Of a stretch of 32,000 bases of DNA, positions 44-32,000 are shown one piece after another. The DNA lies in assembly GCA_037441475.1 (NCBI GenBank), contig JBBISB010000001.1, positions 126,418 through 158,417 of the forward strand. Reading direction: 5' to 3'. Each line of letters begins with the position of its first letter. Within the stretch, counting starts at the first letter, position 1. The translations under genes and the position numbers were made by a program. The notes beneath the pieces were generated by a model. That model ran no database searches and had not been told where the DNA came from. It saw only the letters and a list, made by a program, of their open reading frames with translations. Source of the DNA: Candidatus Iainarchaeum sp. GTDB taxonomy: Archaea > Iainarchaeota > Iainarchaeia > Iainarchaeales > CSSED10-239.

Positions 44-406
44 TCATCTACCAGGAGGTCTTCCACCCATTTTTTTCACCAATTGGTTTCTAGCAGCATG
101 TTCTGTAGCTCCAGGAGTACCATTAGTTTCCATCTTCTTACCCATCATCTCTTCAGCAGAACCACCAGCACTTATGAAGAAGAAATCAACAAAGATACCA
201 GCTACACCTACTGATAAAAGAATATAGAAGATATAACCTACTTTAAAGACAGGCCAGAATAAAAAGACCATAACAATTACAGTTACACTTATTAAGACTA
301 AGGCAAAGGTATTATGTGTAACCCTTCTTCTAATAAAGGCTATGATTGTAAGTATTAAAAATAACTGCAAAATAAAATCAAAGTCTTGTAAAATATTTAA
401 ATACAT
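44..406 (-). CDS. small integral membrane protein (120 aa), about 3 predicted TM helices and a basic Gly/Pro-rich C-terminal tail; function unknown
   Basis: ORF with ATG at 404-406 and TGA stop at 44-46. AAGGTT Shine-Dalgarno-like motif lies 7 nt upstream. Hydrophobic stretches: LQLFLILTIIAFI, FALVLISVTVIVMVFLFWPVF, GYIFYILLSVGVAGIFVDFFFI. Last gene of the co-directional array. No family recognised. Confidence 0.55.
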   Translation of the reverse strand: MYLNILQDFDFILQLFLILTIIAFIRRRVTHNTFALVLISVTVIVMVFLFWPVFKVGYIFYILLSVGVAGIFVDFFFISAGGSAEEMMGKKMETNGTPGATEHAARNQLVKKMGGRPPGR

Positions 407-413
407 TTTCTAT

Positions 414-453: not shown

Positions 454-3400
454 TTAAGGATTTGATGTTGTTGGACAATTGTAAGTAAGGGAAGATATAT
501 TATCTAAAATACCTTCATTTTCGGATACTGTGAAATTTACTTTACTATCAATCCACTTAATATATGTTCTACTTGGAGATTTATAAATACATGCTTTTTC
601 TTGTTTTATATACTCAAATAAATCTTCGACTGTTCTAAGGTTTTCTAAATTATTACCAACCTCATGATCAGAACTTGAAAATAAAATATTTGAAGTTTGA
701 TTAACTCCTGAAGGATTTCCTTTTGTAAACACTTTTGTGTTAGGGTTATTATTAAGTTCATTTATTTTAAAATACATTGAAGAAATATTAAGTGCTGTTG
801 GAAGATATAACATTGTGTTAATATCTATGTTACTATCTAAAACATTCTTTGTATCTAAAATATATCTTGTTTCTTCTATTCCACTATAACGCATATCCTT
901 ATAGATTTTATCCTCTTTATACCATGTTAAAAAGCTATGTCCAATAACACTATTAAGTGAAGACTCATTATCTAAAAGAGAATATGAAAAATTATTATCC
1001 TTAAGACATGCAAGATGTGAAAAGATTGGTATAGGATAAGATGGAGTGTATGTCATCTGTATGTAATCATCAGGAAGAGATTCAAGGAATAATATTTTAC
1101 CTTCAGATTTAATTGTATTTCTTAAACCTGTTAAGGAATTATTATTAATTAATTTAAGTTCTTTAATAGGAGAGTTTACATTTGTATAATTGATGTTTAC
1201 ATCTTTGTTTAAAATAACAGAATCTTCACTAATTACCTTCACACCATAACCATTTCTTGTACCATCTTTATTTAAATTACCATTAAACGGCATATAATGG
1301 AAGACATTAAGCTCTGTTGATGGAAGATCTAATTCCTTTATTAGATTTATGTGTATGAGCTGATCTGAAATTGTTCCTTTGTAAGCAGTATTATTTGTAT
1401 TACCATAAACCATAACTTTGTAAATACCAGGAGTGTATACTTTTAAGTTAGGGTCATTATTAATAACTATCTTAAATTTACCTTGATTTACAGCTGCTAC
1501 AGAAAAGATATCTGTATGTGGCTTATCATATGCATTGTATATTGTAGTAGGATGACCAATAAAGTCTTTTAAAAGATCATCAGAGATACCATCATTCATT
1601 AATTTGATATAGAAGGCTTCAGTTACACCATTTTCTATCTTATTGAATATTGAAAGAAGCATTTGAAGAGAATCACATGCATATTTACTACTCATATTAT
1701 TAGAAGAATCACCTATACATTTAGTCTTCCAAGATCCTGAATCTAAGGCCTTTTCACCCCAGTTAAAGAAAACCTTTGGAAGATTTGCTTCTCCTGTATA
1801 ACAAGACTCTTTCTGAGCTTGACAATAACCTAAAATAAAAATATCACTACCTATTTCTTGACCACCAACACCTAAACAATAATCAAAGGTGATATCTCTC
1901 TCTGTTTCATCAAGAGCTACCTTTGTAATTGTATAAGCTAAGGGCCTAGATTTATTAAAATCAGGAACAGCATTATTTAAAATCTTAAAATTAAAAAATG
2001 TATTTGTGTTTCCTGTAGTTGTATCTTCAGTTAATGAAGAAAAATTATAATAGTAATTAATATTTCTATTAAAAGCTTCTTTTGTAAGGTTAAGAGTAGA
2101 AGATAAATTATTAACATTTATATTTTGATCTTCTGGAACTAAAGTTAAAGAGGTTAGAAGAGTGATGTCATAGTTATCTGTATTCTTTTTAAAAGAATAT
2201 TTTTTATTTTCACTACAATCACTTAAAGTACAGTATATTAAAATATTATTATCTATAGAAAAAACATCTACTAGGGAAGAAGAATCAAATACCTTTAAAT
2301 TAACTTCTTCTGTAAAAGAAACTTCCTTTCCAGAAAGTAAGAAATTAAAGGTTAAAATAATGTTTCCTTGAGAAGGATAATTTCCTGAATAAGTATCATT
2401 AAATTTAAAAACAATAGGAATTACTTTACCAGAAGTAGATAAACTTTGATTTACTGAAGATGCAAGAGAGTTATTAAAGATTGATGAATCTATAAATGAA
2501 GGAAGAGCACTTGAGGTAATATTCTTTAAAACAGCAGAGGAGGATGAAGAAAAGTTATAATCAATACTTATGTTTGGATTAAGATCCTTTATAATCTCAA
2601 CAGTAAAAGTATTTTCATCCTTAAAGACACCTTTCTTAGGTGTTGGGTAAGATAAAGTGTAATTAATATTTCCGAGATTATTAACAGCAATAATAGTATT
2701 TGCATCTAACAAATATTGAAGAGAACCACCAATCTTTAAAATATTTCTATAACTATTGTTAAATATGCCAGACTGATTAACATCTTGGTTTAATATCAAA
2801 GAAGTAATCACTTTAGTTTGATTTAAAGTAATAGGCTTTGGAATATTGTTATTTAAAGACATGTTTGACTTAATTAAAGAATTATTAAAAATACTTGAAG
2901 AACCAGTAAAAGATAAATCCTCTAAATTTCCTGAAATATTTGTAGATTTAACAATAGTGTAATCTGTTTTATTAATATCACTAAAGACAACTTTATTGGT
3001 TAAAATATAATAGTTTGCAGAAGCATTTATTGAATCTTCTAAAATATTATACCCAGAGAATATCTTTTTAACTCTTGAAACTGTATTTCCTACAAATCCA
3101 AACTCAGGAGAAAATATAAAATAAAAATTAACGTTTTTATCAATATCTACAATATCAGCATAGATATTTTGATTTACTAAAACACCCTGAGCATTTGTTG
3201 AACCTAAAGGAATAAGTTCAGAACCAAATTTTTGGTATTTAACAATAACATCTGAAACTGGAGAGCCATAGTTATCAAGAACCTTAAAAGAAACATTATT
3301 TTCTCCTATTATTAATTGATCATTAAAAACATCTGTTGTAATTTCAAAAACAAAATTAACATCTGAATAATAGGAATAAACATTTGTATTTATGGTTGGA

Positions 3401-6400
3401 AAGTTTGTAAAAAGATTAGTAACTATCTTAGGTATTGAAAAAGTAGTATTTTCAAAGAAACCAGTAGGTCTAAATAAAGTATAAGTCCTTAAGAAATACC
3501 CTCTATTAATATCTACAACAGGAAGAGAGTAATTTACATCTTCAACGTTTATATGATAGTAAATACCTTGGTCTGTGGTGTTATTATCACTACCAGGAAG
3601 TTCTCCACCAAGTGTTAAAAAACCAGTTAATAATAAAGGAACAGTATTATTATTATCTTCAGACAAATCTCCTTGACTTGATGCTTGTTGAGGAGTTGAG
3701 TTTCCTAGAGAAGATAAATAACCATAACTTGAATACTTTAAATTATTGTTTGTGTAAACTGAAGTCTGTAAAGTTTTTCCATTTCTGGAAGTATTCTTAA
3801 GATATAGATATTCAACATCATACTTATAGTAATTATCAATAGAAACTGCATAACCATCTGCATATGAAGGAAGAACAGTTCCATTAAAGTCCTTTATTTT
3901 AGTTTGATAAATATAATCTGTATTTTCAAAAGGTATTAAATATTTGTTTGTCTTTGCATAGAAGTATCCATTAGGATAGATTGGTATAGAGTTCCAGGAA
4001 ACTGGTAAAGTAGGATCAAAGGAATAAGTTTGACCATAGATTGTTGAAAGACTTCTATAATTAAGGTTATAGTAATCAGTTGGGGCAATAGGAGTTTCTC
4101 TAAACTTAATGTTAACAGAAAATTCTAAGATGTTTGGTACTAAATCAATGAAATCTATTTTAACCCATTTGTAACCATCTCCTGAATAATTATACTGCTT
4201 ATCATTATTGTATGTTTGGTTAAAAGAAACTATATTAAAGTCAGGTATATGTTCTCCTGAAAACTTATACCCTCTTAAAACATCTACATCCTCTGAGATG
4301 ATGTCTTCAGAGACTAAGAAGATATATTCATCATCAATAAATGTTTGATTACCAGCTCTTATGAAAGCATACTTCTCTTCTGCATCTAAAAGACAAGAGG
4401 TGTATTTAAGTTTTACTTTATACTCTTTATCTAAACCGTTTTCTATAAAGTCAATCTTGTTAACAGTTGTTACACCTGATTTATCATAAAGACCTAAAAC
4501 ATCAAGCTTACCATTTTCACAGGAAGCTAGAGTTGATAAAGAAATTGTTTTAAAAATCTCTTGATCAGGAATTAAAGTTATTAGTTCTGTTTGGTAAGTG
4601 GTATAACCTGCAGAAGAAACTATAGCATACACTCTGTTTACTGAACCTGTAAAGTAATATTGTTTATTTGTATCACTATTAACAACCACATATTCAGTTA
4701 CTGGGTCATGCATAGCATCATAGAAATTAATGTCATAAGATATATTTGGAGTAACCTTAAGGTTTAATATCTTAGGAATATCCTTTAAATCAACTGAAAG
4801 TTTTAAGAAAGAATTAACATCTAGTTTTTTAATATTTGAAACTCCTTCTTTATCAACAACATTATGTATTGCATAAGCATAATAATCTCTATTTGCTCTT
4901 TGCATATTAAAGTTAACATCTCCAAATTGATTAGTAAATTTTGGTTCTAAGTTAACAAGATCAAAAGAATCATTTGTTTTTCTGTAAAGATATACCTTTG
5001 CATTAGAAATATTTGATCCTTCATTCTTAACATTAACACCAATCATTCCAGAGTTAAGTTCTGAAGAAAACTCTAAAGGTATAATAACATTTGTATCTAT
5101 TCCATTAACAACAAATGGATCTGGTTGAAGATAACCACTATCTTCTGTGTTTAGCACCCTTACCCTGTAATTGTAAAAATCAAGAACATTAAAGGTATAA
5201 TGGTTTGTATCTTGAGCAATGTGCTCTTGAATAGAATAATTATTATCTGTATCTTTTAATTTTGAATCTAAGATGATATCTGCATAAACAGGTGCACCGG
5301 TGTTTGCATCTTTTAAAGTTACTGAAATGTATCCTGGTCTTCCTATACTACATGTTCCATCTGCATTCTGTTTTAAGAAAGGTTTTAAATGTGGGTTTAA
5401 ACAGTCAATTTCTCCAGCTATACAATAATCTTGATATTTCAAGATACTACAGTCAAAGTCAAGAAGTTCTTGTAAAGTAAAAAGTCTAATCTCTGTGTTT
5501 GTGGTATTATTTTTTGTAACTGTAAAAGGACCTTTTAAAGGATGTGTTAAGTAACCTTCTTTTGAAATTGTTAAAAGATATTGTTTAGGCTCTAAAGAAA
5601 ATTCACCTAAACCATAAAGATCAGTTGTTTTTGAATCTAGTGGTAAAAGAACAGAAGAGGAAGAGTTATTGTAAACAGTTGCCTCTGAACCTGCAAGAGC
5701 AACTCCTGAAATGTTTTTAACAGAGAAACCTAATTTTCCTCTATCATTATTTATTCTTGTTAAGTTTACTTTATTGTTTGATTCAATAACTTTATTTGTA
5801 ACTGCTGAAAAATGATTTGAAGTTACAGAAACTCTTAAAGAACCACAAGCATATGGTGTGTTTACTATTACCTTGCCTGTTGACACTAAGGTAGTTTTAG
5901 GTGTTGGTGTTTTTTCTGTGTTTGAACAACTAAAGGTTACATTTAATGTTGAGTTTGTTATTAATGTGTTTTCATTCTCAACAAACATTATCTCTCTTTC
6001 TTCAGCAGGGTTTTGTGGAACTAATGGGTTTTTAGTATCTATTGGAAGATATACCTTCTGTCTTAAATTATTTTTATTTAATTTAAAAACATGTTCTGTG
6101 GGGTCATAGTTTTCTTTTGAGACTATTAAAGTTATGTTTTGTTTCTTTGACTTAAAGTCATAAAAGATAACTTCACCAAATACATCTGTACTTGCAAATG
6201 AAACATTCTTATCTTTAATCTGTAAAGTTACTAAAGCGTTGTTTAAAGGTACATTTGAAGGGTTATAAACCTCTACAGCAATCGTCCAAGATTTATTGAA
6301 AGACAATCCTCCAGAAAATATTAAATAAAATAATAATAATAAAATTACTAAAAATAAAATAAAACTTGGAAATACCTTGTCAATAGTATCTGTAAGTTTG

Positions 6401-6843
6401 TTTATAGGTATTACTTTACTTACACCATCAATCATCTTATAGTAGTTATCTTCAAAAAAGAAATACCCTCTCTTTAATGTATTTTTAACTCTTGTAAAAA
6501 AGCCTACTTTATGAACATCTTTTAAAGAAGCTTTACTTTTATTAATCTCAGAATCCTTCTTTAAATCCTTAACATCTATCTTTTCTTTAGAAACATTGTT
6601 TACTGATAAAGATATTTCCTTTAAAACTTCATCTCTTGAAAGTGTTTTTTTAGTTTCTTGTTTTAAAGGTAATTTATTATCAGTTATCATCTTTACAACT
6701 ATAGATGCTACTTTCTCAGAGTATCCTTGTTTCTTAATAGTTTCTTTAATCTCATCAATAGTGTAGTTACTGGTTTTGTCTGAAAGTAAAGCATATAGCT
6801 TTGCAGCTTCTATTTTTTCTTGAGATTTTTTAAATATTGACAT
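454..6843 (-). CDS. giant N-terminally anchored surface protein, paralog E (2129 aa): cytoplasmic N-region, one TM, beta-sandwich repeat array, shared C-terminal module
   Basis: Uninterrupted 6390-nt ORF with TAA stop. About 158 aa of Lys/Glu-rich N-terminal region precede a single TM (aa 159-178, PSFILFLVILLLLFYLIFSG). Repeats have a CarboxypepD_reg-like pattern (GYISVTLKDANTGAPVYADIILD; KVLDNYGSPVSDVIVKY). The C-terminal roughly 480 aa align with three paralogs (PGIYKVMV, HYMPFNG..NGYGV, ACIYKS...YNC). Confidence 0.9.
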   Translation of the reverse strand: MSIFKKSQEKIEAAKLYALLSDKTSNYTIDEIKETIKKQGYSEKVASIVVKMITDNKLPLKQETKKTLSRDEVLKEISLSVNNVSKEKIDVKDLKKDSEINKSKASLKDVHKVGFFTRVKNTLKRGYFFFEDNYYKMIDGVSKVIPINKLTDTIDKVFPSFILFLVILLLLFYLIFSGGLSFNKSWTIAVEVYNPSNVPLNNALVTLQIKDKNVSFASTDVFGEVIFYDFKSKKQNITLIVSKENYDPTEHVFKLNKNNLRQKVYLPIDTKNPLVPQNPAEEREIMFVENENTLITNSTLNVTFSCSNTEKTPTPKTTLVSTGKVIVNTPYACGSLRVSVTSNHFSAVTNKVIESNNKVNLTRINNDRGKLGFSVKNISGVALAGSEATVYNNSSSSVLLPLDSKTTDLYGLGEFSLEPKQYLLTISKEGYLTHPLKGPFTVTKNNTTNTEIRLFTLQELLDFDCSILKYQDYCIAGEIDCLNPHLKPFLKQNADGTCSIGRPGYISVTLKDANTGAPVYADIILDSKLKDTDNNYSIQEHIAQDTNHYTFNVLDFYNYRVRVLNTEDSGYLQPDPFVVNGIDTNVIIPLEFSSELNSGMIGVNVKNEGSNISNAKVYLYRKTNDSFDLVNLEPKFTNQFGDVNFNMQRANRDYYAYAIHNVVDKEGVSNIKKLDVNSFLKLSVDLKDIPKILNLKVTPNISYDINFYDAMHDPVTEYVVVNSDTNKQYYFTGSVNRVYAIVSSAGYTTYQTELITLIPDQEIFKTISLSTLASCENGKLDVLGLYDKSGVTTVNKIDFIENGLDKEYKVKLKYTSCLLDAEEKYAFIRAGNQTFIDDEYIFLVSEDIISEDVDVLRGYKFSGEHIPDFNIVSFNQTYNNDKQYNYSGDGYKWVKIDFIDLVPNILEFSVNIKFRETPIAPTDYYNLNYRSLSTIYGQTYSFDPTLPVSWNSIPIYPNGYFYAKTNKYLIPFENTDYIYQTKIKDFNGTVLPSYADGYAVSIDNYYKYDVEYLYLKNTSRNGKTLQTSVYTNNNLKYSSYGYLSSLGNSTPQQASSQGDLSEDNNNTVPLLLTGFLTLGGELPGSDNNTTDQGIYYHINVEDVNYSLPVVDINRGYFLRTYTLFRPTGFFENTTFSIPKIVTNLFTNFPTINTNVYSYYSDVNFVFEITTDVFNDQLIIGENNVSFKVLDNYGSPVSDVIVKYQKFGSELIPLGSTNAQGVLVNQNIYADIVDIDKNVNFYFIFSPEFGFVGNTVSRVKKIFSGYNILEDSINASANYYILTNKVVFSDINKTDYTIVKSTNISGNLEDLSFTGSSSIFNNSLIKSNMSLNNNIPKPITLNQTKVITSLILNQDVNQSGIFNNSYRNILKIGGSLQYLLDANTIIAVNNLGNINYTLSYPTPKKGVFKDENTFTVEIIKDLNPNISIDYNFSSSSSAVLKNITSSALPSFIDSSIFNNSLASSVNQSLSTSGKVIPIVFKFNDTYSGNYPSQGNIILTFNFLLSGKEVSFTEEVNLKVFDSSSLVDVFSIDNNILIYCTLSDCSENKKYSFKKNTDNYDITLLTSLTLVPEDQNINVNNLSSTLNLTKEAFNRNINYYYNFSSLTEDTTTGNTNTFFNFKILNNAVPDFNKSRPLAYTITKVALDETERDITFDYCLGVGGQEIGSDIFILGYCQAQKESCYTGEANLPKVFFNWGEKALDSGSWKTKCIGDSSNNMSSKYACDSLQMLLSIFNKIENGVTEAFYIKLMNDGISDDLLKDFIGHPTTIYNAYDKPHTDIFSVAAVNQGKFKIVINNDPNLKVYTPGIYKVMVYGNTNNTAYKGTISDQLIHINLIKELDLPSTELNVFHYMPFNGNLNKDGTRNGYGVKVISEDSVILNKDVNINYTNVNSPIKELKLINNNSLTGLRNTIKSEGKILFLESLPDDYIQMTYTPSYPIPIFSHLACLKDNNFSYSLLDNESSLNSVIGHSFLTWYKEDKIYKDMRYSGIEETRYILDTKNVLDSNIDINTMLYLPTALNISSMYFKINELNNNPNTKVFTKGNPSGVNQTSNILFSSSDHEVGNNLENLRTVEDLFEYIKQEKACIYKSPSRTYIKWIDSKVNFTVSENEGILDNISSLTYNCPTTSNP
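457..1896 (-). other. shared C-terminal module, short form (aa ~1650-2129 of the 2129-aa ORF)
   Basis: DYCLGVGG...FFNWGEKALDSGSWKTKC..KYACDSLQMLLSIFNKI, PGIYKVMV, HYMPFNG..NGYGV, MLYLPTA, ACIYKS..YNC. More divergent than the long form and lacks its middle section. Confidence 0.65.
4534..6288 (-). repeat. protein-level tandem array of CarboxypepD_reg/prealbumin-like beta-sandwich repeats (paralog E, aa ~186-770)
   Basis: TIAVEVYNPSNVPLNNALVTLQI..TDVFGEVIFY; LGFSVKNISGVALAGSEATVY..TDLYGLGEFSL; YISVTLKDANTGAPVYADIIL; IGVNVKNEGSNISNAKVYLY..TNQFGDVNFN. Boundaries are approximate. Confidence 0.7.
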
Positions 6844-6858: not shown

Positions 6859-9309
6859 TTATTTTTTAAATAATGGTGTGAAAGGGAAGTTAAAAGAAGT
6901 TCCATCAATAGAACCTTCTATTCTGTAATTTTGATAATAACAAAAAATATCTTTCCCAGTTAAATCCATGTTAATATCATAATACCATTCTAAGTTGTTT
7001 AGGTTAAGCTTATATTCATAAAGATTTAATTTTTCATTTAAAACACCAGATATTGTTGCTTTGTTTGTGTAAAGTGGAAGGTGATTTTCTTTTGTAAAAG
7101 GGTTATAAAGATTATTTATTTTTGTAAAGGCAGAATTGTTTCTAGCATAGTATATCTTAAGGTTGTTTGCATTAATAGTTCCTTGCTTTGAAGAAAATAA
7201 AGTGTATGTTTGTGAAAATTTATTTGCAGAGCCTGTTGGAAAAACAGCTGTACTTTCAAAATCATAATAATCACAGATTGAACATTCTGCGTTTTGTGTA
7301 TAGTTTGTGCTAGGAGGTAAAAAGCCTTGAACCTCTCCTTGGTTTGCTAGATTAATAGAAATATTTCCTGAAAGATAATCAAGATTTTGTGAAGGTTTTT
7401 TAATGTAACAAGCGTTGTTTACTTTTATTTTTCTATTAGTTGTATCTCCTGTAATTCCATCTTCATTATAAGTAATACAACTATTAATACAAGAATTATA
7501 AATTAAATCATCTTCTGCTAACTGCTCTGGAGTACAAGTAAGTTCATTATCATCACTTTCTTTACATAAACGATTCTCTTGACATTCATTCATACACTCA
7601 TTATCATAATTAATTGTTGAAGAACTACTTAAAATAGTATATACTTTAAAAGGAAGATAACTTCCTGTCTGTAACTTTTGAATAACAACATCAGATTCAT
7701 TAGGATCAGGTAATCTTTTACTATTAACAACTAAATTAAAATTATTTGTTTTATTTATTAAATAATCAATAAAAACATTTTTTGTAACTCCTGAAACACC
7801 ATTAAATCCATTTATAGTTCCTTTTAAACCATGAACATTTGATTCTAAATTAATATTTATATTTCCTATGTTATTTAAAATGCCAATATCTAAATTAGAA
7901 AGAAGGCTACCGCCATCTCCTCCATTCCCTGCTTTACTTTCATCAGGATAATTGTTTTTACGTCCACCATCATTACCTTTGCCTGCTAAGGAATTAATAT
8001 TTAAGATACCGCTATTGTTGATACTACCTATCTGTTTAAAATCATTATTACAAACTAATTTATTAAATTGAGAATCCCATACAGTGTTACAAAAAAATAT
8101 ATTTCCTCCATAACCACCATTTCCCCCTTTAGCTTCATCTTTTCTAGAACCACCATCAAAACCAGTATTTCCTCCAAGTCCGCCTTTTCCTGCTAAAAGA
8201 TTTATACTAAGAAGTTGAGTATTATCAATAGTATCTTTTATAAAAAAAGAAATATGTCCACCATCTCCTCCATTTCCTCCGTTACCAGGTAAATTTCTAG
8301 AGGCACAATTATCAGGACTACTTCTTTTTGAAGAAGACCCATTTCCTCCATCAGCCCCATCTCCTGAAATTATTTTAAGATCAAGAGATCCATTATTCAT
8401 AATTTTATCTAAAATAAACTTAACTTCTCCAGCATTTCCGGCATTAACTCCATGAGCAGGAGGAGAATTAGTACGATTATTACCAGTACACTTTGGAGCA
8501 GTTTTACCCTTTCCTGAATCTGCTGATTTAAGAAGTATATTTAATGTCCCATAATTATAAATTGCATTATTATCAACATATACACTTCCACCTGATCTAC
8601 CAGGATCACAAATACCAGTTGGTTTTTTAGCTTCTACAGTAAGATCTAAAGCACTGCCTTCTAAAACAATTAAATTATTAAAATTAAAAGTTAAATCTTC
8701 TTTAATATATACTAAATCTCCTTCAGCCCAACTTACACAATAACTTCTTTCTTTAGTTCTCATTTCTATTTTAGAAGTTTTAGAAACAACTAAATTATTA
8801 AAATCAAAAGTAAAAGTTGCATTTCCAAGCTTATCGTTATTGTTTACAAAAATATCTATGTTCTTACCATTTGTGTTTAAAGAATCAATACCTGAAATCT
8901 TTAAAGAAGTTGTTGTGCTTGTAATCTCCATCTTTAGGTTTGAACCAAGTAAAACATTTACTTTTGTGTTTTCTTGACAAGAAGACTTTGTAAAAGATAG
9001 ATTACTAGTTAAAGACACGTCTGTTGGAGAAGGAACATATTCATCTACACAAGCTTGTGCACACTCTATATTTTGCGGAGAATAAAAATTACTACATCCC
9101 TCTAAGCAAGTATCAAGAGAAGGAGAAGTTGCATCAGAGCTGTTAAATAAAATAAAATTACATTCATCCCCCACACATCCAAAAGGAATGACTTTAAGAG
9201 ACGGAGAATTAACAGTAAGTGAACAACTATCAGAAAACACATATGACTGTACAAATAACAAAAGAACTACTAAAACCACAGTTAATATTATTTTTTTAAG
9301 CACACTCAT
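6859..9309 (-). CDS. secreted Cys-rich protein with central Gly/Asn-rich (GNGGxGG) repeat core, probably beta-helical (816 aa); function unknown
   Basis: 2451-nt ORF with TAA stop. N-terminal signal peptide (KKIILTVVLVVLLLFVQSYVFS|DSC). Eight Cys within aa 29-111. Glycine turns (GDGADGGNG, GNGGNGGDGG, GKGGLGGNTGFDGG, GGNGGYGG, GNGGDGGS) alternate with hydrophobic strand-like segments. A second Cys cluster follows (CMNECQENRLC...CTPE...CINSC). Confidence 0.85.
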   Translation of the reverse strand: MSVLKKIILTVVLVVLLLFVQSYVFSDSCSLTVNSPSLKVIPFGCVGDECNFILFNSSDATSPSLDTCLEGCSNFYSPQNIECAQACVDEYVPSPTDVSLTSNLSFTKSSCQENTKVNVLLGSNLKMEITSTTTSLKISGIDSLNTNGKNIDIFVNNNDKLGNATFTFDFNNLVVSKTSKIEMRTKERSYCVSWAEGDLVYIKEDLTFNFNNLIVLEGSALDLTVEAKKPTGICDPGRSGGSVYVDNNAIYNYGTLNILLKSADSGKGKTAPKCTGNNRTNSPPAHGVNAGNAGEVKFILDKIMNNGSLDLKIISGDGADGGNGSSSKRSSPDNCASRNLPGNGGNGGDGGHISFFIKDTIDNTQLLSINLLAGKGGLGGNTGFDGGSRKDEAKGGNGGYGGNIFFCNTVWDSQFNKLVCNNDFKQIGSINNSGILNINSLAGKGNDGGRKNNYPDESKAGNGGDGGSLLSNLDIGILNNIGNININLESNVHGLKGTINGFNGVSGVTKNVFIDYLINKTNNFNLVVNSKRLPDPNESDVVIQKLQTGSYLPFKVYTILSSSSTINYDNECMNECQENRLCKESDDNELTCTPEQLAEDDLIYNSCINSCITYNEDGITGDTTNRKIKVNNACYIKKPSQNLDYLSGNISINLANQGEVQGFLPPSTNYTQNAECSICDYYDFESTAVFPTGSANKFSQTYTLFSSKQGTINANNLKIYYARNNSAFTKINNLYNPFTKENHLPLYTNKATISGVLNEKLNLYEYKLNLNNLEWYYDINMDLTGKDIFCYYQNYRIEGSIDGTSFNFPFTPLFKK
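7900..8457 (-). repeat. Gly/Asn-rich GNGGxGG repeat core of the 816-aa protein (aa ~285-470)
   Basis: Glycine turns alternate with strand-like segments: AGNAGEVKFILDKIMNNGSLDLKIISG, DGADGGNG, PGNGGNGGDGGHISFFIKDTIDNTQLLSINLLAG, KGGLGGNTGFDGG, GGNGGYGGNIFF, SGILNINSLAGKGNDGG, AGNGGDGGSLLSNLDIGILNNIGNININL. Confidence 0.75.
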
Positions 9310-9326: not shown

Positions 9327-9704
9327 TTAATCAATTCTAAATAAAACATTTATATTTTTATTAGGGTTATCAACAGTGTTATAAAGTACATAATACCTAC
9401 CCATACCAGGCTCTCTTCTTAATTGTCTTGCAGAACCATCTACAGGTAACCTTAAGATTAAAAGATTATTATTTCTAACTGAAGGATTTAAGACGGATAT
9501 TGATTGAAATTGATATCCAATTAATTGTGAAAAGCTACCTTGTGAAAGCGAAGAAGGTAAGACAGGAGTAATAACATCTCCAGAGTCCCCCTTAATAACC
9601 CCAAAAACAAAAGGAGCAACATAAATATTTGTATCATAATCAACTGCAGAAATGAATGGAGAGAATAATAATAATGCGAAAAATAAATATAGATATCCCT
9701 TCAT
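9327..9704 (-). CDS. small secreted protein (125 aa), function unknown
   Basis: ORF with ATG at 9702-9704 and TAA stop. AAGGTTA motif lies 6 nt upstream. N-terminal signal peptide (YLYLFFALLLFSPFISA|VDY). Follows the only intergenic gap large enough (70 nt) for an internal promoter. Confidence 0.65.
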   Translation of the reverse strand: MKGYLYLFFALLLFSPFISAVDYDTNIYVAPFVFGVIKGDSGDVITPVLPSSLSQGSFSQLIGYQFQSISVLNPSVRNNNLLILRLPVDGSARQLRREPGMGRYYVLYNTVDNPNKNINVLFRID

Positions 9705-9710
9705 AACTTA

Positions 9711-9717: not shown

Positions 9718-9774
9718 AAATATATTATAATAACTATAAAATATAGTTAAACAATATATTTATATATCTTACTT

Positions 9775-25155: not shown

Positions 25156-28100
25156 TTATTTAAATTTATCAGGATTATGCCATAGTAATAACTCTGGGTT
25201 ATTTCCTGAAATATTGAAACATACATTTCCTGTAGGTATCTCCTTAAAGACATCATTCATTGTATTGTATGTTAATTTTGGTTCTACATTATTCATTACT
25301 AAATTATAGATCATGAAATTATTACTCACTACTGTTTTTGTAAATGCAGTTACATTCTTTGTATCTCCATTATTGATTTGTGGATTTGCATACAAAGCAA
25401 CTTGTAAAGATGTTTTATCTTTAAGTAAGAATAATCTATTCATGTTGTTTAAAACCTTAAGATCAGTGTTATTGTTTGTTTGAACTATCTTAAAGTTATA
25501 TGGTTTATTAAAGTAAAATGGTCTTGAGTCTATGAAAGTATAGTTTGCCATATCCTTAAAGCTAAAGATATATCCATCTTGTATTGTGTCTGTAGATGAA
25601 TAATCTGTAACATTATAAATTCCACTTAAGAAAGGAGCATTATATAATGTATTGCTTTTAGACATAGTATATCTAGGGTTAATTGGCATACTGAATAATA
25701 TGTTTTTATTATATTCATCAGGAAGTGCCCTTACAAGACTTCTTATCTTTATAACAACATTCTTACCAACACCTTGTGAAGCATGTATTAAATAAACACC
25801 TGGTTTTGAAACATTCATAGCTCTTTCATAAGTAAATTCATATGTTTTAACAACAGTACTACTGTTATATGTGTTTAAGATATTAACATTTAATGGATCA
25901 TTAGTTTGTCCAAACTTCTTCAAGCTTGAAGTAAACACTTGTGGAGAAGATCCAAAGTAAACTTCCATGTTTGCGTATACTTCTGCTCTTTGGTTATCAT
26001 TAGAAAATTTATTATGTAAATTATTTAAGAAATACTCAGCAGTGGTGTATTGATAGTCCCCAATTGTAACTACTGCTAAATAATCTCCGCTTGGATTATA
26101 TTCAAGACCCTTTGTCTTAATAATGGTTATTTCTCTTAACTCCTGAGGAATAGAATTAAGTAATTTTACAGCTTCATCAATATAACTTTGAAGAGTCTCT
26201 TTTCCTTGCCTATTAAAGTCTTCACAAACATCTCCGTCACCACAGAAATCAACTTTTATATCTGATCTTTTTATTGTTTGCCAATCTTTTTCAAAGTAGA
26301 TATCTCCAAGTTTTACATATTTTGAAGTATCTTTTAAACTATCTAAACCAACTACCTTCTTTTGTAAATAATCATAGAATTGCTCTTGATCACAGTACAT
26401 GTTATCACAAGAGGTTGCAGTTATCTTTGAAGAATCATACTCAAATAAGATTTTATCAAATCCATAATCGTTGTATGCTTCTAAGCCAGTTTGTCCAAGA
26501 TTTGAAGAAAGGTCAGGAGCTAAACATTTAAGAGCACCAGTAGCTATAGTTTCTCCATCAGCAGTTGGTGTTACAGAACCATCAATACTCCTATCACTTA
26601 CAGCTGTTGAAACACCAATAGAGATATGTGATTCTAATTTTGCTTTTTGATTCTCACTAGATGCCCAAAGCTCAAATACTTTATTAATATTAGAGGTCTG
26701 ACCTTCTTTGAAAAGATCATAAATTGTTATCTTACTATTAACAGCTAAAACATTATTAAATGAATCAACTGGTCTTGTAAAACATAATTTGAAAATATGT
26801 CTTGTTGGTTTTAAAAATCTAATACTTACCTTTAATGGATTATAAGTATCCTTAAGGTAATAAGTACCATTATCATTAATATAAGAGGTATCCTTAATAC
26901 CGTTTAATGGAAAGTCTTTAACATAACCAAAGAAACATCTAGTAACTTCAGTTTCTTGATCCATTCTTTTAAACTTATCAGCAGTCAATTGATTTTCAGG
27001 AACATGTATCATAACAGCTTTATTTTCAGAATCTAAGGTGTAAGTTAACTTAACAGATGTATCAACAAACATCATATCTTCATCAGTTACATTTTCATCA
27101 GTAAACTGTTTTATTAAATCCCAGTTATCCTTATTATCTAAGATAAGCCACTGGAAGTTATCTGTAAGTTGCATACCTACATTATTATAGATTAAAGAGG
27201 ATTGTCCGTGTGGTGGTTGAAGACCAACTTGAAGCACAAACTTTAAGTTAACTGTATCCTCTACATCTATTAATATTTTTCTAAAGGATGAAACTATTCC
27301 TGCTGCTAAAGAATACTGTGAATATTTATTTAGATATTCCTTTGCAGAAACTGTGTTTTTAATCTCTGGATTTCTTCTTAATGCAATTTCCCAATATTCA
27401 ATTGGTTTATTAGTTGTAAGTTCTGTAAAAGTATCCACCTTAATAGGCTGTATCTTACCTTGCATCTCTCCAACAGTTAAGAAAGAAACACCATCAAAAT
27501 CAAGATCCATTAAATCAAGATAACTAACTTCAACTAATCTATAACCATCAGCAAAGCAAGTGTTCATAACTTTTACCATTTGGTATTTAGGGTCAAGTAT
27601 ATTTGAAAAATCTAATTTTTGAGGAGTTACCTGTATACATTTTGAAGGCATAAAGCTTATTGGTAAAGTTACTGAAACAGGCACATTTCCTACAAGTCTA
27701 TAATTTGCTTTATTTACTAAAGATGGCTTAACATTAACAGGTATATTGAAAGTACCCATTGACTCTCCACCTAAGATAGTAGTTTCTTTACTTTCACCAG
27801 GCTCTAAACTAAACTCTGCATCAGAAGTAATTGTTACACCGTAAGATGCATCAAGCTTAATTGTAACACCCTCTAAACAGTTGTTCTTAATATAGAAAGG
27901 TCTTACAGGACAGTTCATGTTGTTTGACATACCCATATTACCATAGTTATCTTGAGGGTAACCTGACATAAAATTATAACTATTATAGTTACCAAAAGTA
28001 TTTTGATACTGTGCTGTTGGGAAGTTATAAGGGTTAACTGTTGATGCTTGAGGACCAGCATAACCAAATTGTCCAACTAAATTGTAATTTGGATTTCTGT

Positions 28101-31100
28101 ACCCTTGTTGTTGAGTAAAGTATCCTTGTCCTGCTTGATATGTATTATGAGGATTAAATTGATTATTCATGTTGTATGGAGTATTAAAGTTATTTCCTCC
28201 AAAGTAAGGATTATTGTATCCTGAGGAGAAGTTATTACCACCATAATATTGATTATAGTTATTAAATCCTGAAAACCAATTACATGCAAGAGCAGGAACT
28301 GGTTGTTTAGGCATTTCTATACATTCAGCATAGTTGTTAACAATAACCTCTAATGGAAGTCTTGCCTTAACTTCATCAACACCATTGATATTTCCTTTCT
28401 TAGATGTGAAATATATGGTTGGAGTCTTAATATTTGATGCTATTTTATAAGCTTTAAACTTTAATTGTAAAGTTGATTTTGCATTCTTTAAAAGAGAGGA
28501 TAATATAGAAACTTCTTTTAAGTCTTCTAAAATATATTCTTTACCAGAAACAACAATAGATAAAACACCAGCTTCAGATTCATTACCCCAATCTGCCATA
28601 GCGTTAATAGATGTTAAATCAATTGCAATTTGTCTTGAGGTACATTTATTCTCTACTGTAAAATCAAAAGTAACTGTTTTATCAGCCTCTGTTCTTATGG
28701 AAGCTGAACTTGGAAGTACTTTTAAACAATCTAAGGAATCAAGAGCATTTCCTAAAACAACTCTAACTGTTACTGGTATTGTAACAAGCCATGTCTTATT
28801 CATTTCTTCGCTTCTTATCCTGATTGCAACTTCGTTTTTAATAGTTTGTTGAGTATAAAGATTCATTCCTGCTTCTGTTAATGTAGCAGTTAAGGTTATA
28901 TCATTTTGAGAGTTTCCATTTATGGTATAATTTTCAATATCTAAAGCTAACTTTACATATTGATTATCTAAGCTTTGAGATACAGAAACTATAGATAAAG
29001 GAACATATGCTTCGTTAAATAAACTAAAGTTATAAACTTCTCTAACGTTTACTGATGAGTCTAAAGTTAAAGTTATTTCCTTAGGTATTGCAGTGATTAA
29101 TTGATCATCAACAACTAAGGAGATGTCTTTCATCCTATATTCATTCTTTGTAACAATTATTCTAACAACATCCCCTAAGTCAGTTGCTGGAAGAACATAA
29201 CCATACAAACCTTGTGAGTTTGTAAGAGATACAACTAAAGGATTATTGTTTAATAAAATATTAACATTCGCACCATTTACTGGCTTATTACTATGATCAG
29301 TAACAGCAATCATTAAATCATTTGCTATAAATGGAATAATTTTTCTTGGTACCATTTCAACATACATTTCTTTAGCTTCCTTAACATCTATAAAAATGTT
29401 TCTTGAAAACACTTCTTGTCCGTTTGAAACTATTGAAATTGTAATAACATCAGAAACATCATCAATAACCTTAAAATCAATATCTCCTGAAAGAATATCA
29501 TTAGAGGTTAAAGATCCAATCTCTATATTTGAAAACTCATTTCCTCTTAAAAGATTACCTGTAACTGAGTTGATCATGTATTCTTTTAAAACAACTGAGG
29601 AACCTGTTGTTATTACCATTGTTGAATTAGGAGCAATCTTTCCTTCTAAAACATTTAAGTTAAATGAAAGTCTATAATCATTATTAATCTGTGCATTATA
29701 TCTATCAATTATGTTTCTTGAAAGATTTGTTTGGTTGCTTGTTATTGTAAAAGCATAACATAAAAGTGAAGAACATTGGTTCTGTGAACCAGTAAACAAC
29801 ATTGCTTGCTTTGTTTGTGCATATAAATTTTGTTTTGTATTTCCAGAAGTATAAGAGGTATCAACAGGTGATCTTACTATACTTGTACCCTCATAAAACT
29901 CAGCCCTATAGTTTAAAGCTTGGTTTATAAAAGCACTCTCTAAAACAACAACATCAGCTTCAATTAAATAACTTCCTTCTAAAGGATTGTTAATGGTTAA
30001 GTTAAACCACTTTGCATTTCTTAAAGTCTTGTTTGAAAGATCAGTTGTTTGTCCTGAACATGGAGTGTATGAAGTTGATCCAATAGTTTCAGACTTAGCG
30101 TATCTTACTTCCTTAATAAATAAAGCATCCTCTAAAACAGTATAAGTGGTTGTACCACATACTGGGTTTGGTGCATTTCCTATTCTTAAGTGTGCTACAA
30201 CTTTTGAAAACTTTTTAGTAACATTTAATGAATATCTAGCAGTTACTTGCATACCTGGAGTTACAGAGTTTATTTTTTCTCCTAAAGCATTATAGAAACC
30301 TAAAAACTCAATACCTGATGTTTGTGAAATTCTTGATGGTAAAGTAAATGAAAGATTAACAATCTCATTTGCATTAATCTCATATCTTGAAGTTATAAAT
30401 TTAGAATCAAAATTATCAATAACAAAGTATACTTGCTTATCTGCTCTTATCTTTATTAAAGTAAAACCCTCTGCGTTTGTAGATGTGGTTTTATCTGCTA
30501 AGATACTATCGTTTAAAGTATCATAAACATATACGTTTCCTTGGTAGAAATCCCCAAACTCAGTTTTTAAAGTTAAGTTAAAGGTTCCTTCTCCAATTGT
30601 CATCTTTATTACTTGTTCATTTATTTGTTGTTCAACAATTCTAAATGGATTTGTAAACTCAGAAGTAAATTGTCCTTTAGATGAATCAAGCTTATATGTT
30701 CTACTTATATCTAAGTTTGTTAAAACAGCTTTACCATAAACATCAGCAGTTATTGTTTGAAGAATAATGTTTTCTTCAGCATCCCATAGTCTAATGGTTG
30801 CAAAATCAACTGGTTTAAGTAAATTATCTTGAACTGTTATAACAAGGCTTCTTAAGTTTTCATTAGTTATTGGGTTTAAAGAGATTTGTTTTACAGAGTC
30901 ACTTATTCTTAAGTTATTCTCTGTTTTTAAAATATAATTAGGATTATTAAAAACAACCTTGTAAGTTATGTTTTCTTCAACACCGAAATTTACAAGACCT
31001 TCTTTGTTTGAGATTAATGTTTTTACAAGTGTGCTTGTTTTGTATAAAGAAACTGAAACATTTTCAATAGCTTCTTTTGTTTTAGAATCAATTACTTTAA

Positions 31101-32000
31101 ATTTAAGTTGACCAATATATGCCTTTGTTAAAAGAACATCTTTATTTTGAAGAGCTGAATCAACAATTGTTATTTGTATATTTTCAAGTTCTGTTATTGG
31201 TCTGTATCTATCATCATTATCATATATAACAACTCTGTATGTTCCTATTGTTATGTTTTCAAAAAGAACAATACCGTTTGTGTTTGTAGTTGCTTCTCTT
31301 ACAACTTGACTTTGCATATTAACAATTGAAACACTAACATTTGAAATTGGTGTTTTTAAATCATTATCTAAAACTTTAATCGATGCATTACCTGTTTTCT
31401 TTTCTGCAAAGCTTAACTCAACATCTCCTGATAAACCATCTTCGTTTACTGCAACAGAACCAACTGCATTAACTGTGGATGATTCTATTGAAACTTGTAA
31501 GTAACCACAATCAGCAGGTATGTCTGTTAAGGTTAAAGAACCGTCGTTTGTTAAAAGATTATTTTTTCTATAATTACTGTTATTTGAACAAGTGATTGTT
31601 GAAACTGTTAAAGGAGAATTATATAGTTCGTTATTTGATTTAAAATATATTGTTTTTGAAACTGTACTAACTGTTAATTTAAGATAAACTGGATAGTTAT
31701 TCTTTTTACTAAAGTTAATAGTTAAAGGAGTCTCTATTTGGTATTTAGAACTTTTAATACCTAAAGGCATTTCCTCTTTCTTAATACCAGTAACCTCTGC
31801 TATTCCTAAAGAGTTTGTTACAAGAAGTTTTGGAGAGTTGTTAAATAATATTTCTAAACTCTCATTTGAGATTGGTTTATTTTGGGAGTCTACAAAAGTT
31901 AAAGAATAGGTCTGATCAGTAACAACTGAAGATCCAAATAATAAGAATGCTAAAAATACTATTAATAAAAGTATTATAAGATTGAATAATAGGAAGGTTG
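25156..32000 (-). CDS. giant surface protein, paralog A, 5'-partial (>=2280 aa): true start lies beyond the window edge
   Basis: The reading frame stays open from 31770 up to position 31998 (my own translation). The extension encodes TFLLFNLIILLLIVFLAFLLFGSS (a TM anchor like the paralogs) followed by a first beta-sandwich repeat. Downstream lie CarboxypepD_reg-like repeats (SIKVLDNDLKTPISNVSVSIV), Cys-bracketed domains, an N/Q/Y/G-rich segment and a divergent short C-terminal module (PGVYLI, FSMPINP, VCFNISG). TAA stop at 25156-25158. Confidence 0.9.
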   Translation of the reverse strand, partial: TFLLFNLIILLLIVFLAFLLFGSSVVTDQTYSLTFVDSQNKPISNESLEILFNNSPKLLVTNSLGIAEVTGIKKEEMPLGIKSSKYQIETPLTINFSKKNNYPVYLKLTVSTVSKTIYFKSNNELYNSPLTVSTITCSNNSNYRKNNLLTNDGSLTLTDIPADCGYLQVSIESSTVNAVGSVAVNEDGLSGDVELSFAEKKTGNASIKVLDNDLKTPISNVSVSIVNMQSQVVREATTNTNGIVLFENITIGTYRVVIYDNDDRYRPITELENIQITIVDSALQNKDVLLTKAYIGQLKFKVIDSKTKEAIENVSVSLYKTSTLVKTLISNKEGLVNFGVEENITYKVVFNNPNYILKTENNLRISDSVKQISLNPITNENLRSLVITVQDNLLKPVDFATIRLWDAEENIILQTITADVYGKAVLTNLDISRTYKLDSSKGQFTSEFTNPFRIVEQQINEQVIKMTIGEGTFNLTLKTEFGDFYQGNVYVYDTLNDSILADKTTSTNAEGFTLIKIRADKQVYFVIDNFDSKFITSRYEINANEIVNLSFTLPSRISQTSGIEFLGFYNALGEKINSVTPGMQVTARYSLNVTKKFSKVVAHLRIGNAPNPVCGTTTYTVLEDALFIKEVRYAKSETIGSTSYTPCSGQTTDLSNKTLRNAKWFNLTINNPLEGSYLIEADVVVLESAFINQALNYRAEFYEGTSIVRSPVDTSYTSGNTKQNLYAQTKQAMLFTGSQNQCSSLLCYAFTITSNQTNLSRNIIDRYNAQINNDYRLSFNLNVLEGKIAPNSTMVITTGSSVVLKEYMINSVTGNLLRGNEFSNIEIGSLTSNDILSGDIDFKVIDDVSDVITISIVSNGQEVFSRNIFIDVKEAKEMYVEMVPRKIIPFIANDLMIAVTDHSNKPVNGANVNILLNNNPLVVSLTNSQGLYGYVLPATDLGDVVRIIVTKNEYRMKDISLVVDDQLITAIPKEITLTLDSSVNVREVYNFSLFNEAYVPLSIVSVSQSLDNQYVKLALDIENYTINGNSQNDITLTATLTEAGMNLYTQQTIKNEVAIRIRSEEMNKTWLVTIPVTVRVVLGNALDSLDCLKVLPSSASIRTEADKTVTFDFTVENKCTSRQIAIDLTSINAMADWGNESEAGVLSIVVSGKEYILEDLKEVSILSSLLKNAKSTLQLKFKAYKIASNIKTPTIYFTSKKGNINGVDEVKARLPLEVIVNNYAECIEMPKQPVPALACNWFSGFNNYNQYYGGNNFSSGYNNPYFGGNNFNTPYNMNNQFNPHNTYQAGQGYFTQQQGYRNPNYNLVGQFGYAGPQASTVNPYNFPTAQYQNTFGNYNSYNFMSGYPQDNYGNMGMSNNMNCPVRPFYIKNNCLEGVTIKLDASYGVTITSDAEFSLEPGESKETTILGGESMGTFNIPVNVKPSLVNKANYRLVGNVPVSVTLPISFMPSKCIQVTPQKLDFSNILDPKYQMVKVMNTCFADGYRLVEVSYLDLMDLDFDGVSFLTVGEMQGKIQPIKVDTFTELTTNKPIEYWEIALRRNPEIKNTVSAKEYLNKYSQYSLAAGIVSSFRKILIDVEDTVNLKFVLQVGLQPPHGQSSLIYNNVGMQLTDNFQWLILDNKDNWDLIKQFTDENVTDEDMMFVDTSVKLTYTLDSENKAVMIHVPENQLTADKFKRMDQETEVTRCFFGYVKDFPLNGIKDTSYINDNGTYYLKDTYNPLKVSIRFLKPTRHIFKLCFTRPVDSFNNVLAVNSKITIYDLFKEGQTSNINKVFELWASSENQKAKLESHISIGVSTAVSDRSIDGSVTPTADGETIATGALKCLAPDLSSNLGQTGLEAYNDYGFDKILFEYDSSKITATSCDNMYCDQEQFYDYLQKKVVGLDSLKDTSKYVKLGDIYFEKDWQTIKRSDIKVDFCGDGDVCEDFNRQGKETLQSYIDEAVKLLNSIPQELREITIIKTKGLEYNPSGDYLAVVTIGDYQYTTAEYFLNNLHNKFSNDNQRAEVYANMEVYFGSSPQVFTSSLKKFGQTNDPLNVNILNTYNSSTVVKTYEFTYERAMNVSKPGVYLIHASQGVGKNVVIKIRSLVRALPDEYNKNILFSMPINPRYTMSKSNTLYNAPFLSGIYNVTDYSSTDTIQDGYIFSFKDMANYTFIDSRPFYFNKPYNFKIVQTNNNTDLKVLNNMNRLFLLKDKTSLQVALYANPQINNGDTKNVTAFTKTVVSNNFMIYNLVMNNVEPKLTYNTMNDVFKEIPTGNVCFNISGNNPELLLWHNPDKFK
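25159..26526 (-). other. shared C-terminal module, short and most divergent form (aa ~1749-2204 of paralog A)
   Basis: CLAPD...ILFEYDSSKITATSCDNMYCDQEQFYDYLQKK aligns with LDW...YCDATQ. Also PGVYLIHA, LFSMPINP, DVFKEIPTGNVCFNISG. Confidence 0.55.
27913..28272 (-). repeat. N/Q/Y/G/F/P-rich low-complexity (prion-like) segment, aa 1167-1286 of paralog A
   Basis: SGFNNYNQYYGGNNFSSGYNNPYFGGNNFNTPYNMNNQFNPHNTYQAGQGYFTQQQGYRNPNYNLVGQFGYAGPQASTVNPYNFPTAQYQNTFGNYNSYNFMSGYPQDNYGNMGMSNNMN. It contains only one R, one D and one H, and no K or E. Conserved Cys flank it (ALACNWF ... NCPVRP). Confidence 0.85.
30337..31925 (-). repeat. protein-level tandem array of about 80-95-aa CarboxypepD_reg/prealbumin-like beta-sandwich repeats (paralog A)
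   Basis: Recurrent pattern h-x-h-x-V-x-D-(x)n-P-h-x-x-A/V-x-V-x-h...T-(D/N)-x-x-G-x-h-x-h...G-x-Y-x-h. Examples: GNASIKVLDNDLKTPISNVSVSIVN..TNTNGIVLFENITIGTYRVV; LKFKVIDSKTKEAIENVSVSLY..NKEGLVNF; LVITVQDNLLKPVDFATIRLWD. Boundaries are approximate. Confidence 0.7.

Follow-up and report, generated by a model that had tools for sequence, protein, structure and literature searches.

A phylum-wide locus of giant membrane-anchored proteins in Iainarchaeota as a candidate cell-envelope assembly

What would an archaeon with a minimal genome keep a 40-kb operon of giant surface proteins for? The question is raised by a 32,000-nucleotide (nt) stretch of DNA from Candidatus Iainarchaeum sp. (contig JBBISB010000001.1, positions 126,418 to 158,417; hereafter the window), which is filled by eight genes, numbered g1 to g8 by position, five of them encoding very large proteins. 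We tentatively favour the view, placing it a little short of an even chance, that the locus encodes a fixed, heteromeric, membrane-anchored scaffold or canopy of the cell envelope, akin to a colossal surface-layer (S-layer) protein with its anchoring reversed. Across the phylum, a fixed set of three giant subunits is co-inherited with two small membrane proteins, which is the signature of a heteromeric structure.

Conserved order and positional orthology

The source is a Forterrea-like Iainarchaeote (Diapherotrites, DPANN). In its closest named relative, Candidatus Forterrea multitransposorum, the locus is syntenic and the order g8-g7-g6-g5-g4-g3 is kept, at 61, 69, 74, 61, 40 and 44% identity, respectively. 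The synteny and the 74% identity of g6 bear out the DPANN-like source organism proposed in an earlier reading of the sequence by a model (the first-pass annotation). The window has a GC content of 29%, and 31,718 of its 32,000 nt are coding (99.1%). All eight open reading frames (ORFs) lie on the minus strand, separated, from g1 to g8, by gaps of 47, 15, 17, 70, 17, 33 and 40 nt, and the five large products sum to approximately 9,500 residues; on each of these counts the first-pass annotation was right. The locus exceeds both window ends: the operon measures 40 kb, and the window takes in the greater part of it. On the upstream side, g8 is preceded by a 558-residue gene (g9) and a 2,696-residue giant (g10), while downstream of g1 come the 120-residue g0, an HU-like gene and then aminoacyl-tRNA synthetases. 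The exact proteins were found in four assemblies, one of them a Logan contig of 101.7 kb and another an NCBI contig of 671.5 kb.

When each GTDB species was scanned through one genome, 166 matching stretches in 69 distinct loci were obtained, nearly all from metagenome-assembled genomes of Iainarchaeota/Diapherotrites, plus three complete genomes with one locus each: Forterrea (0.84 Mb), AR10 (1.24 Mb) and CP064981 (1.05 Mb). Since all three complete genomes among the matches carry it, the distribution of the locus is wider than the most reduced genomes, those of putative symbionts. Approximately 65 Iainarchaeota loci consist of two to five tandem giants of 2,300-2,700 residues followed by homologues of g1 and g0, in conserved order. 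The first-pass annotation had proposed a dedicated surface structure and named a non-conserved neighbourhood as a possible refuter; the neighbourhood is conserved in related genomes, so that proposal survives. In the window, the otherwise conserved array order (giants, then g1 and g0) is interrupted by g4, g3 and g2.

Giants were labelled by their position upstream of g1 (-1, -2 or -3) and then compared between genomes. Same-position giants from different genomes matched with medians of 578 and 830 bits over the N-terminal (N) region and of 357, 404 and 156 bits over the C-terminal (C) region, whereas pairs of giants at different positions, also those from a single genome, reached approximately 360-390 bits over the N region and 52-220 over the C region. 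In 36 of 37 cases for the N region and 57 of 62 for the C region, the best match in another genome lay at the same position. The giants thus form three ancient positional orthologous groups, the g8-type (position -3), g7/g6-type (position -2) and g5-type (position -1), which implies that three distinct subunits have been kept since the phylum radiated. Identity to close orthologues is even along the length (45-70%), variable in linkers only, with no hypervariable tip. Diversification of binding specificity, which had been read from the divergence between these ancient paralogues, is unsupported, because the giants match same-position giants elsewhere far above their own-genome neighbours.

The small partners of the giants are conserved as well. 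g1 (44-406) encodes a small multi-pass membrane protein of 120 residues with three to four transmembrane (TM) segments. No other gene of the locus is as well conserved: its identity to the Forterrea orthologue is 91%, versus 40-74% for the rest, and its basic, Gly/Pro-rich C-terminal tail is almost unchanged between the two genomes. A g1 homologue follows the last giant in 30 of the 42 loci with enough downstream DNA, within 500 nt in 28 of them, and most of the loci without a downstream g1 are explained exceptions. Behind the g1 homologue there is usually one of g0, a further multi-pass membrane protein of 120 residues (17 loci). In the window itself g0 is represented by its 15 initial codons (1-47), the rest being outside (16797-17159 of locus L071). 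In several genomes, one to three more multi-pass membrane proteins of 90-125 residues come after g1/g0 (L056 15255-17408, L029 20076-21787 and L020 15298-16632), and the small-membrane-protein part of the locus may therefore exceed two genes.

Four arrays typical of Iainarchaeota (L021, L035, L066 and L045) were found on contigs labelled Chloroflexi, Thaumarchaeota or Micrarchaeota. These labels are likely the result of mis-binning or mislabelling and not of a wider distribution.

Architecture of the giants and their neighbours

Pfam and NCBIfam searches of the window proteins returned no enzyme, transporter, ATPase, regulator or mobile-element domain, in agreement with the first-pass annotation, which had seen no such gene interleaved. 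Neither did they return a cadherin, FG-GAP, RTX, LPXTG or PGF-CTERM signature. The claim that the usual adhesin and sorting signatures are lacking holds for these five, and fails for one Big_1 (invasin/intimin-type) immunoglobulin (Ig) domain in g5, which lies above the Pfam threshold (41 versus 34.9 bits). Only beta-sandwich repeat families were matched, in g2, g5, g7 and g8 (CarboxypepD_reg, SpaA, SdrD_B, Big_1 and MG3/MG4); g1, g3, g4 and g6 had no family match in either database.

An all-against-all comparison showed that g5, g7 and g8 have in common an N-terminal and central region of 1,000-1,400 residues (21-23% identity, E-values 1e-24 to 1e-35), which g2 resembles weakly. A C-terminal module (C module, with parts C1 and C2) is common to g5 and g6 (E 5e-36; g5 residues 1755-2392) and to g2 (E 5e-11). 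Its C2 part is present in g2, g5 and g6, while g8 has C1 only, g7 has no module and g6 has no repeat array. The five giants had been described as sharing one set of blocks, including a C-terminal module in every one; this is true of the anchor, array and centre in g5, g7 and g8, and weakly so in g2, and must be given up for the array in g6, for C2 in g8 and for the whole module in g7. g7 and g6 are the two halves of one g5-like protein, fused in most other Iainarchaeota.

One strong N-terminal signal-anchor was found in each of g2, g5, g7 and g8, and a signal sequence in g6; hydropathy gave no C-terminal TM helix in g2, g5, g6, g7 or g8. Ahead of the anchor, the g7-, g5- and g8-type giants carry a cytoplasmic motif of approximately 35 residues, MGLKxxYYxLEDKYYxFLDKxxxxIPxYKxxDPIDKxxPSF, a consensus drawn from an alignment of 103 phylum-wide N-termini in which some g6-type signal sequences are included. 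Motif, anchor and CarboxypepD_reg-type array occur together in g7, g5, g8 and g2. When the N-terminal motif profile was run against a word-indexed protein database, only short contig-end fragments were matched.

Beyond the anchor, the domain types of the putative stalk are CarboxypepD_reg, SpaA, Big_1 and MG, with CarboxypepD_reg present in 18 of 18 aligned members. The best PDB profile matches of the N region are spacer or stalk proteins: NOMO2 (9C7V_B, 5e-5) and SlaB (8QOX_B, 7e-5). Seven Cys residues are invariant in the N and central region, and eight among g6 orthologues. The giants are rich in Asn, Ser and Thr (N/S/T), with a sequon density of 0.9-2.8 per 100 residues, compared with 0.2-0.45 in the contig's two aminoacyl-tRNA synthetases and 1.5-2.1 in three other flanking genes. 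Sequons exceed the composition expectation only in g2 (z = 4.0) and g7. Because of this restriction, and of the scores of the three other flanking genes, the sequon support for a surface location is weak. Together with signal-anchor topology, invariant Cys and the N/S/T-rich composition, it nevertheless predicts that the giants are surface-exposed, as first annotated, and they are probably N-glycosylated.

The g8 frame runs from 25156 past the window edge at 32000 and is a position -3 type giant, 2,321 residues at full length (L073). Its start had been placed at 31770; the frame is in fact open to 31998, with the signal-anchor at the edge (31939-31995; TM helix FLLFNLIILLLIVFLAFLL, residues 43-61 of the full protein, hydropathy peak 3.23). 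The order of its parts is cytoplasmic motif, signal-anchor, beta-sandwich array, central region, low-complexity linker, C1-like sub-module and divergent C-end. Pfam gave CarboxypepD_reg (7e-18), SdrD_B, SpaA and bMG3, and C1 proved homologous to g6 residues 250-530 after iteration (E 4e-36). The linker (27913-28272), 120 residues of which 62% are Tyr, Gly, Asn or Gln, is prion-like and separates the central region from the C-terminal part; similar linkers occur in the position -3 giants of AR10 (L031 1-4086) and L026 (1-4053).

The position -2 giant is split in the window into g7 (20001-25115; 1,704 residues, N-terminal half) and g6 (17073-19967; 964 residues, C-terminal half). g7 has motif and signal-anchor in residues 1-56, array and Cys-containing central region to approximately 1500 and a variable tail from 1500 to 1704. 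This tail (residues 1501-1704, 20004-20615) is only 12-27% identical among close orthologues, whose lengths range from 1,603 to 1,867 residues; it holds an Ala/Lys-rich helical stretch and a Thr-rich linker and has no family match. A likeness to a degenerate NlpC/P60 domain, seen by eye in the tail (GDFIGY...GYFAIYLG), received no backing from Pfam and was dropped. Two plus-strand ORFs within g7 (20404-20748 and 22381-22743) are antisense shadows.

The complete, fused architecture is seen in g5 (9775-17055; 2,426 residues, position -1 type), where motif and anchor are followed by the beta-sandwich array, the central region, a hydrophobic hairpin and both parts of the C module. The hairpin (12430-12582, residues 1492-1542) is Gly/Ala-rich (LLWATSGVSIGIIASSILAEIGIVGALLVVPVWGWIGGGALLAIAALAPTF) and lies in the middle of an otherwise extracellular giant; it could anchor the protein in the membrane a second time or insert into a membrane. 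A hairpin that separates the N region from the C module, near residue 1500, is found in 16 of 27 position -1 giants, with equivalents in 3 of 20 at position -2 and none of four at position -3.

The C module was followed furthest in g6, where C1 spans residues ~250-540 (a YCDATQF helix and a CARDB/Ig-like sandwich) and C2 residues ~550-960. The family profile matches g6 at E 1e-280, g5 at E 1e-115 and the C2 of g2 at E 2.7e-55 (jackhmmer). HMMER found 593 representatives of the module among 1.84 billion proteins, 314 of them at E <= 1e-30, almost always at the C-terminus of proteins of 2,300-3,200 residues; re-searching the g6 alignment against the word-indexed protein database returned the same 15 proteins. 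Across 52 diverse sequences, residues D552, Y654, R670, Y673, W794 and D817 of C2 are invariant, and the module carries the motifs YCDATQF, MKDGYSxDFxxDFDxYY and YYMPFxGxVG...RQGYG. An AlphaFold2 model of g6 from the 52-sequence alignment reached a mean pLDDT (predicted local distance difference test score) of 82.6, with residues 290-960 mostly >90; an alignment of 11 sequences gave 45.8. Foldseek comparison of the model with PDB and BFVD yielded no match at E <= 0.001, the sole high-probability local matches being CARDB/Ig-like sandwiches of approximately 120 residues, and sequence profiles of the C module had no match in PDB.

Five further genes are peculiar to the Forterrea-like clade, in which the g5-type giant and g1 are separated by the insertion of g4, g3 and g2, and g9 and g10 are added upstream. 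The extra giant g2 (454-6843; 2,129 residues) has a 155-residue cytoplasmic extension, motif and anchor (TM 157-175), a divergent body and C2 (residues 1743-2111, 511-1617). The extension (residues 1-155, 6379-6843) is Lys/Glu-rich, unlike the other giants, and has no family match. g3 (6859-9309; 816 residues) and g4 (9327-9704; 125 residues) each have an N-terminal signal sequence and are predicted to be secreted, and with the TM segments of g1 this upholds the earlier view that the three genes besides the giants encode membrane or secreted proteins. Homologues of g3 were found only in L002 (44%) and L003 (40%), and those of g4 only in the same two loci, at 40%; these are the two closest genomes whose fetched DNA extends that far. 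The first-pass annotation had suggested looking for co-occurrence of g3 and g4 with the C module; this fails, and the role of conserved partners falls instead to g1 and g0. g4 has no Pfam or NCBIfam match, and g3 none in Pfam, NCBIfam or PDB. g3 contains 24 Cys, with Cys-rich ends and central Gly-rich repeats of the form PGxGGxGGxGG (residues ~230-520, 7750-8622). Between the repeats (PGNGGNGGDGG, AGKGGLGGNTGFDGG, KGGNGGYGGNIFF, AGNGGDGGS), which both orthologues keep, lie beta-like stretches of hydrophobic residues, a pattern that suggests a beta-solenoid. g9 (L073 1114-2790) begins with MFIKNKKGFNLFTALISLMLL, which by eye resembles an archaeal class III (type IV pilin-like) signal; it matched no pilin family, and prepilin peptidase, assembly ATPase and pilus genes were not found in the DNA read around the locus. 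The gene adjoining the locus downstream of g0 (L071 17370-17639) is of bacterial-type HU (Bac_DNA_binding), in an archaeal genome.

Several other matches were set aside as sub-threshold or compositional: CdiI_2 in g8 (E 0.012), DUF1831 in g3 (E 0.09), EfeO in g2 (E 0.047), a CP40 protease match to the Gly-rich repeats of g3 (E 0.022) and two in g7, namely the OmpA-like CHU_0125, which scored 23 bits where the cut-off is 620, and SH3_CYT4 in its tail (E 0.032).

The genes have the signs of an operon. Besides the short gaps, Shine-Dalgarno-like GGAGG/AGGT motifs precede g7, g6, g5, g4 and g1; the start codon of g0 overlaps the stop codon of g1, which suggests translational coupling; and terminator-like sites show no excess over chance within the locus. 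The longest gap, the 70 nt ahead of g4 (9705-9774), is rich in A and T, contains TATA-like runs (TATATAAATATATT, TTTATAG) and may be an internal archaeal promoter for g4-g3-g2-g1. A sigma-70 promoter scan gave 112 sites against 109.5 expected, which is chance, and the method is inapplicable to an archaeon.

A proposed envelope assembly and its alternatives

In our reading, the window holds the core of an envelope operon specific to the phylum. Its products are three anciently diverged giant type-II membrane proteins, g8-type, g7/g6-type (split here) and g5-type, the small membrane proteins g1 and g0 and, as clade-specific extras, g2, g3, g4, g9 and g10. The cytoplasmic motif and the uncleaved signal-anchor would hold each giant in the membrane. 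The string of prealbumin/Ig-like beta-sandwiches would form a stalk carrying the central region with its conserved Cys, and the far end would be the family-specific C module, made up of C1 with its Ig/CARDB-like sandwich and of C2, a domain of 400 residues. With the stalk-and-head geometry that we infer, the three giants would assemble into a fixed heteromeric scaffold or canopy on the cell surface, for which g1 and g0 would serve as the membrane platform; contact with other cells, if any, would be made through this layer.

An envelope scaffold is favoured because the stalk matches NOMO2 and SlaB and because a colossal S-layer protein is known from the Thermoproteota. Conserved as it is throughout the phylum, and occupying approximately 5% of a minimal genome, the locus is probably central either to how the cell is built or to how it makes contact. 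A fuller version is, on balance, doubtful: the locus would be the Iainarchaeota cell envelope itself, a heterotrimeric colossal layer of type-II subunits of approximately 250 kDa, organised by g1 and g0 through the cytoplasmic motif, capped by a domain of a hitherto unseen fold and, in the Forterrea-like clade, elaborated by extra giants and secreted proteins into the surface for host contact.

Several points weigh against a scaffold. In known S-layers the lattice is made by a single protein or by two; as a rule the signal peptide is cleaved, and attachment is through a C-terminal anchor or a separate stalk protein. Three giants with an uncleaved N-terminal anchor differ from that design. None of the products contains a Pfam or NCBIfam S-layer domain family, and the giants fell outside every S-layer and adhesin sequence family tested. 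The invariant D, R, Y and W residues of C2 would be equally in place in a pocket for ligand binding or catalysis, it is not obvious what the hairpin of the g5-type giants would do in a lattice, and a separate, ordinary S-layer protein may exist in Iainarchaeota. Finally, the case for a scaffold is a genomic one; to our knowledge, no Iainarchaeote has been cultivated or imaged.

The alternative that survives best is that the giants are dedicated adhesins for attachment to other cells or to a host, each standing independently on its stalk, with distal modules that bind host ligands and paralogues that differ in specificity. We consider this a serious possibility, although on the whole an unlikely one. 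A reading of this type was also proposed by Probst & Banfield (2018, PMC5905446). It fits a DPANN lineage with a reduced genome (the 671-kb contig and the Forterrea paper), the presence of Ig, SpaA, SdrD_B and Big_1 domains, which are typically found in the stalks of bacterial adhesins, and the expansion of the locus by g2, g3, g4, g9 and g10 in the most reduced (Forterrea-like) clade; moreover, the proteins of DPANN attachment organelles are not yet known (PMC11420986). It is harder to reconcile with three core giants that are positional orthologues throughout the phylum, without lineage-specific turnover or a hypervariable region, and with the presence of the locus in larger genomes, those of AR10 (L031) and I. 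andersonii (L061), for which a free-living lifestyle has been proposed (cited in PMC5905446). That the giants are closely linked to small membrane proteins of high conservation likewise suggests a machine and not free-standing adhesins. The clade-specific additions are another matter, and for these an adhesive role may well be right.

The invariant residues of C2 (D552, R670, Y654, Y673, W794 and D817), kept together with its motifs across the 52 sequences, could instead point to surface-tethered capture or enzymatic display, with C2 as a novel glycan- or polymer-binding or hydrolytic domain that scavenges nutrients for a minimal metabolism. The Ig/CARDB-like sandwich beside C2 does resemble accessory domains of glycoside hydrolases. 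C2 itself, however, matched no enzyme or lectin in the Pfam, NCBIfam, PDB-sequence and Foldseek comparisons, the matches to glycoside hydrolase family 2 are confined to the Ig-like domain, and such a role needs no three paralogous giants in fixed order; we therefore judge it improbable.

The g5-type hairpin raises a further alternative, in which it would insert into a partner membrane and open cytoplasmic bridges. Its conserved place near residue 1500 in 16 of the 27 position -1 giants is in keeping with such a function, and cytoplasmic bridges have been documented in other DPANN phyla (PMC11420986). The composition of the hairpin may also resemble that of viral fusion peptides. Against this, the hairpin would serve equally well as a second anchor in the cell's own membrane, and we know of no host or bridge described for Iainarchaeota. 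No likeness to known fusogens emerged in PDB or BFVD, g6 being the sole protein modelled, and membrane bridging or fusion appears very improbable. That the ORFs are non-functional or misassembled is effectively refuted by conservation and has next to no probability, given identical proteins on four independent contigs, intact orthologues at 25-80% identity in dozens of genomes and frames open for up to 7.3 kb in DNA of 29% GC.

As far as the literature shows, five observations are new: that the giants are positional orthologues throughout the phylum, that g7 and g6 are a split protein, that conserved small membrane proteins accompany the giants, that a cytoplasmic motif is common to them and that C2 has an unmatched fold. 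Together, they shift the likeliest reading from variable adhesins to a conserved envelope assembly.

Comparison with known systems

The locus was noticed in outline in 2018, when Candidatus Forterrea multitransposorum was reported to have a 42-kb locus that encodes five large proteins anchored in the membrane (Probst & Banfield 2018, PMC5905446). The Forterrea locus is orthologous to the one described here, with the same gene order, in a different species or genus. It received one sentence and a functional guess, without domain analysis, the g7/g6 split or a phylum-wide comparison (PMC5905446), and a literature search on Iainarchaeota S-layer and surface proteins returned nothing beyond that sentence.

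Among DPANN archaea, the SPEARE proteins of Nanohaloarchaeota, reportedly described by Hamm and colleagues in 2019, are said to be giants with serine-protease, adhesion and restriction-endonuclease domains and a proposed part in host interaction; in contrast, no protease or nuclease domain was detected by Pfam or NCBIfam in the window proteins. Giant bacterial repeat adhesins (such as intimin/invasin and Gram-positive pilins) use the same Big_1, SpaA and SdrD_B sandwich families. The giants here, however, have no Pfam match to LPXTG, type I secretion (T1SS)/RTX or autotransporter modules; they are anchored as archaeal type-II proteins and are fixed positional orthologues instead of a variable repertoire.

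Other parallels concern the stalk. NOMO, of the BOS complex, serves as a spacer in the lumen of the endoplasmic reticulum and is a rod of prealbumin-like sandwiches anchored in the membrane, although it is eukaryotic and C-terminally anchored, and the similarity is limited to the fold of the repeats. The Sulfolobus S-layer (SlaA/SlaB/Saci_1846) is likewise a multi-component envelope with a stalk of CarboxypepD_reg-like sandwiches, and SlaB matches one sandwich of the N region. This match is to a single generic domain, SlaB is anchored C-terminally via a coiled coil, and there is no SlaA-like lattice protein in the present locus.

The protein identities of DPANN contact structures are still open (PMC11420986), and a defined gene set offers concrete targets: the three giants, the two small membrane proteins, the cytoplasmic motif and a module of unmatched fold. 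A further counterpart is PySLP, the colossal S-layer protein of Pyrobaculum (Thermoproteota) described in a 2026 bioRxiv preprint, with 2,667 residues, 292 kDa, 19 Ig-like domains and 14 Cys in the lattice region (10.64898/2026.08.21.746120). It has a cleaved N-terminal signal peptide, a membrane-proximal beta-hairpin and, at the C-terminus, a TM helix followed by a basic tail whose last residue is Lys, and forms a homo-hexameric lattice from one protein (10.64898/2026.08.21.746120). Compared by description, PySLP and the giants of Iainarchaeota are of similar size, each a lineage-wide family with a membrane-anchored beta-sandwich stalk and a Cys-containing distal region. They differ in that the topology is reversed here, with an N-terminal anchor and no C-terminal TM helix, that three paralogous subunits are combined with small membrane proteins, and that C2 is not an Ig fold. 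If the envelope reading is correct, the recently recognised class of colossal, Ig-rich archaeal envelope proteins would extend to the DPANN, with a different topology and a heteromeric composition.

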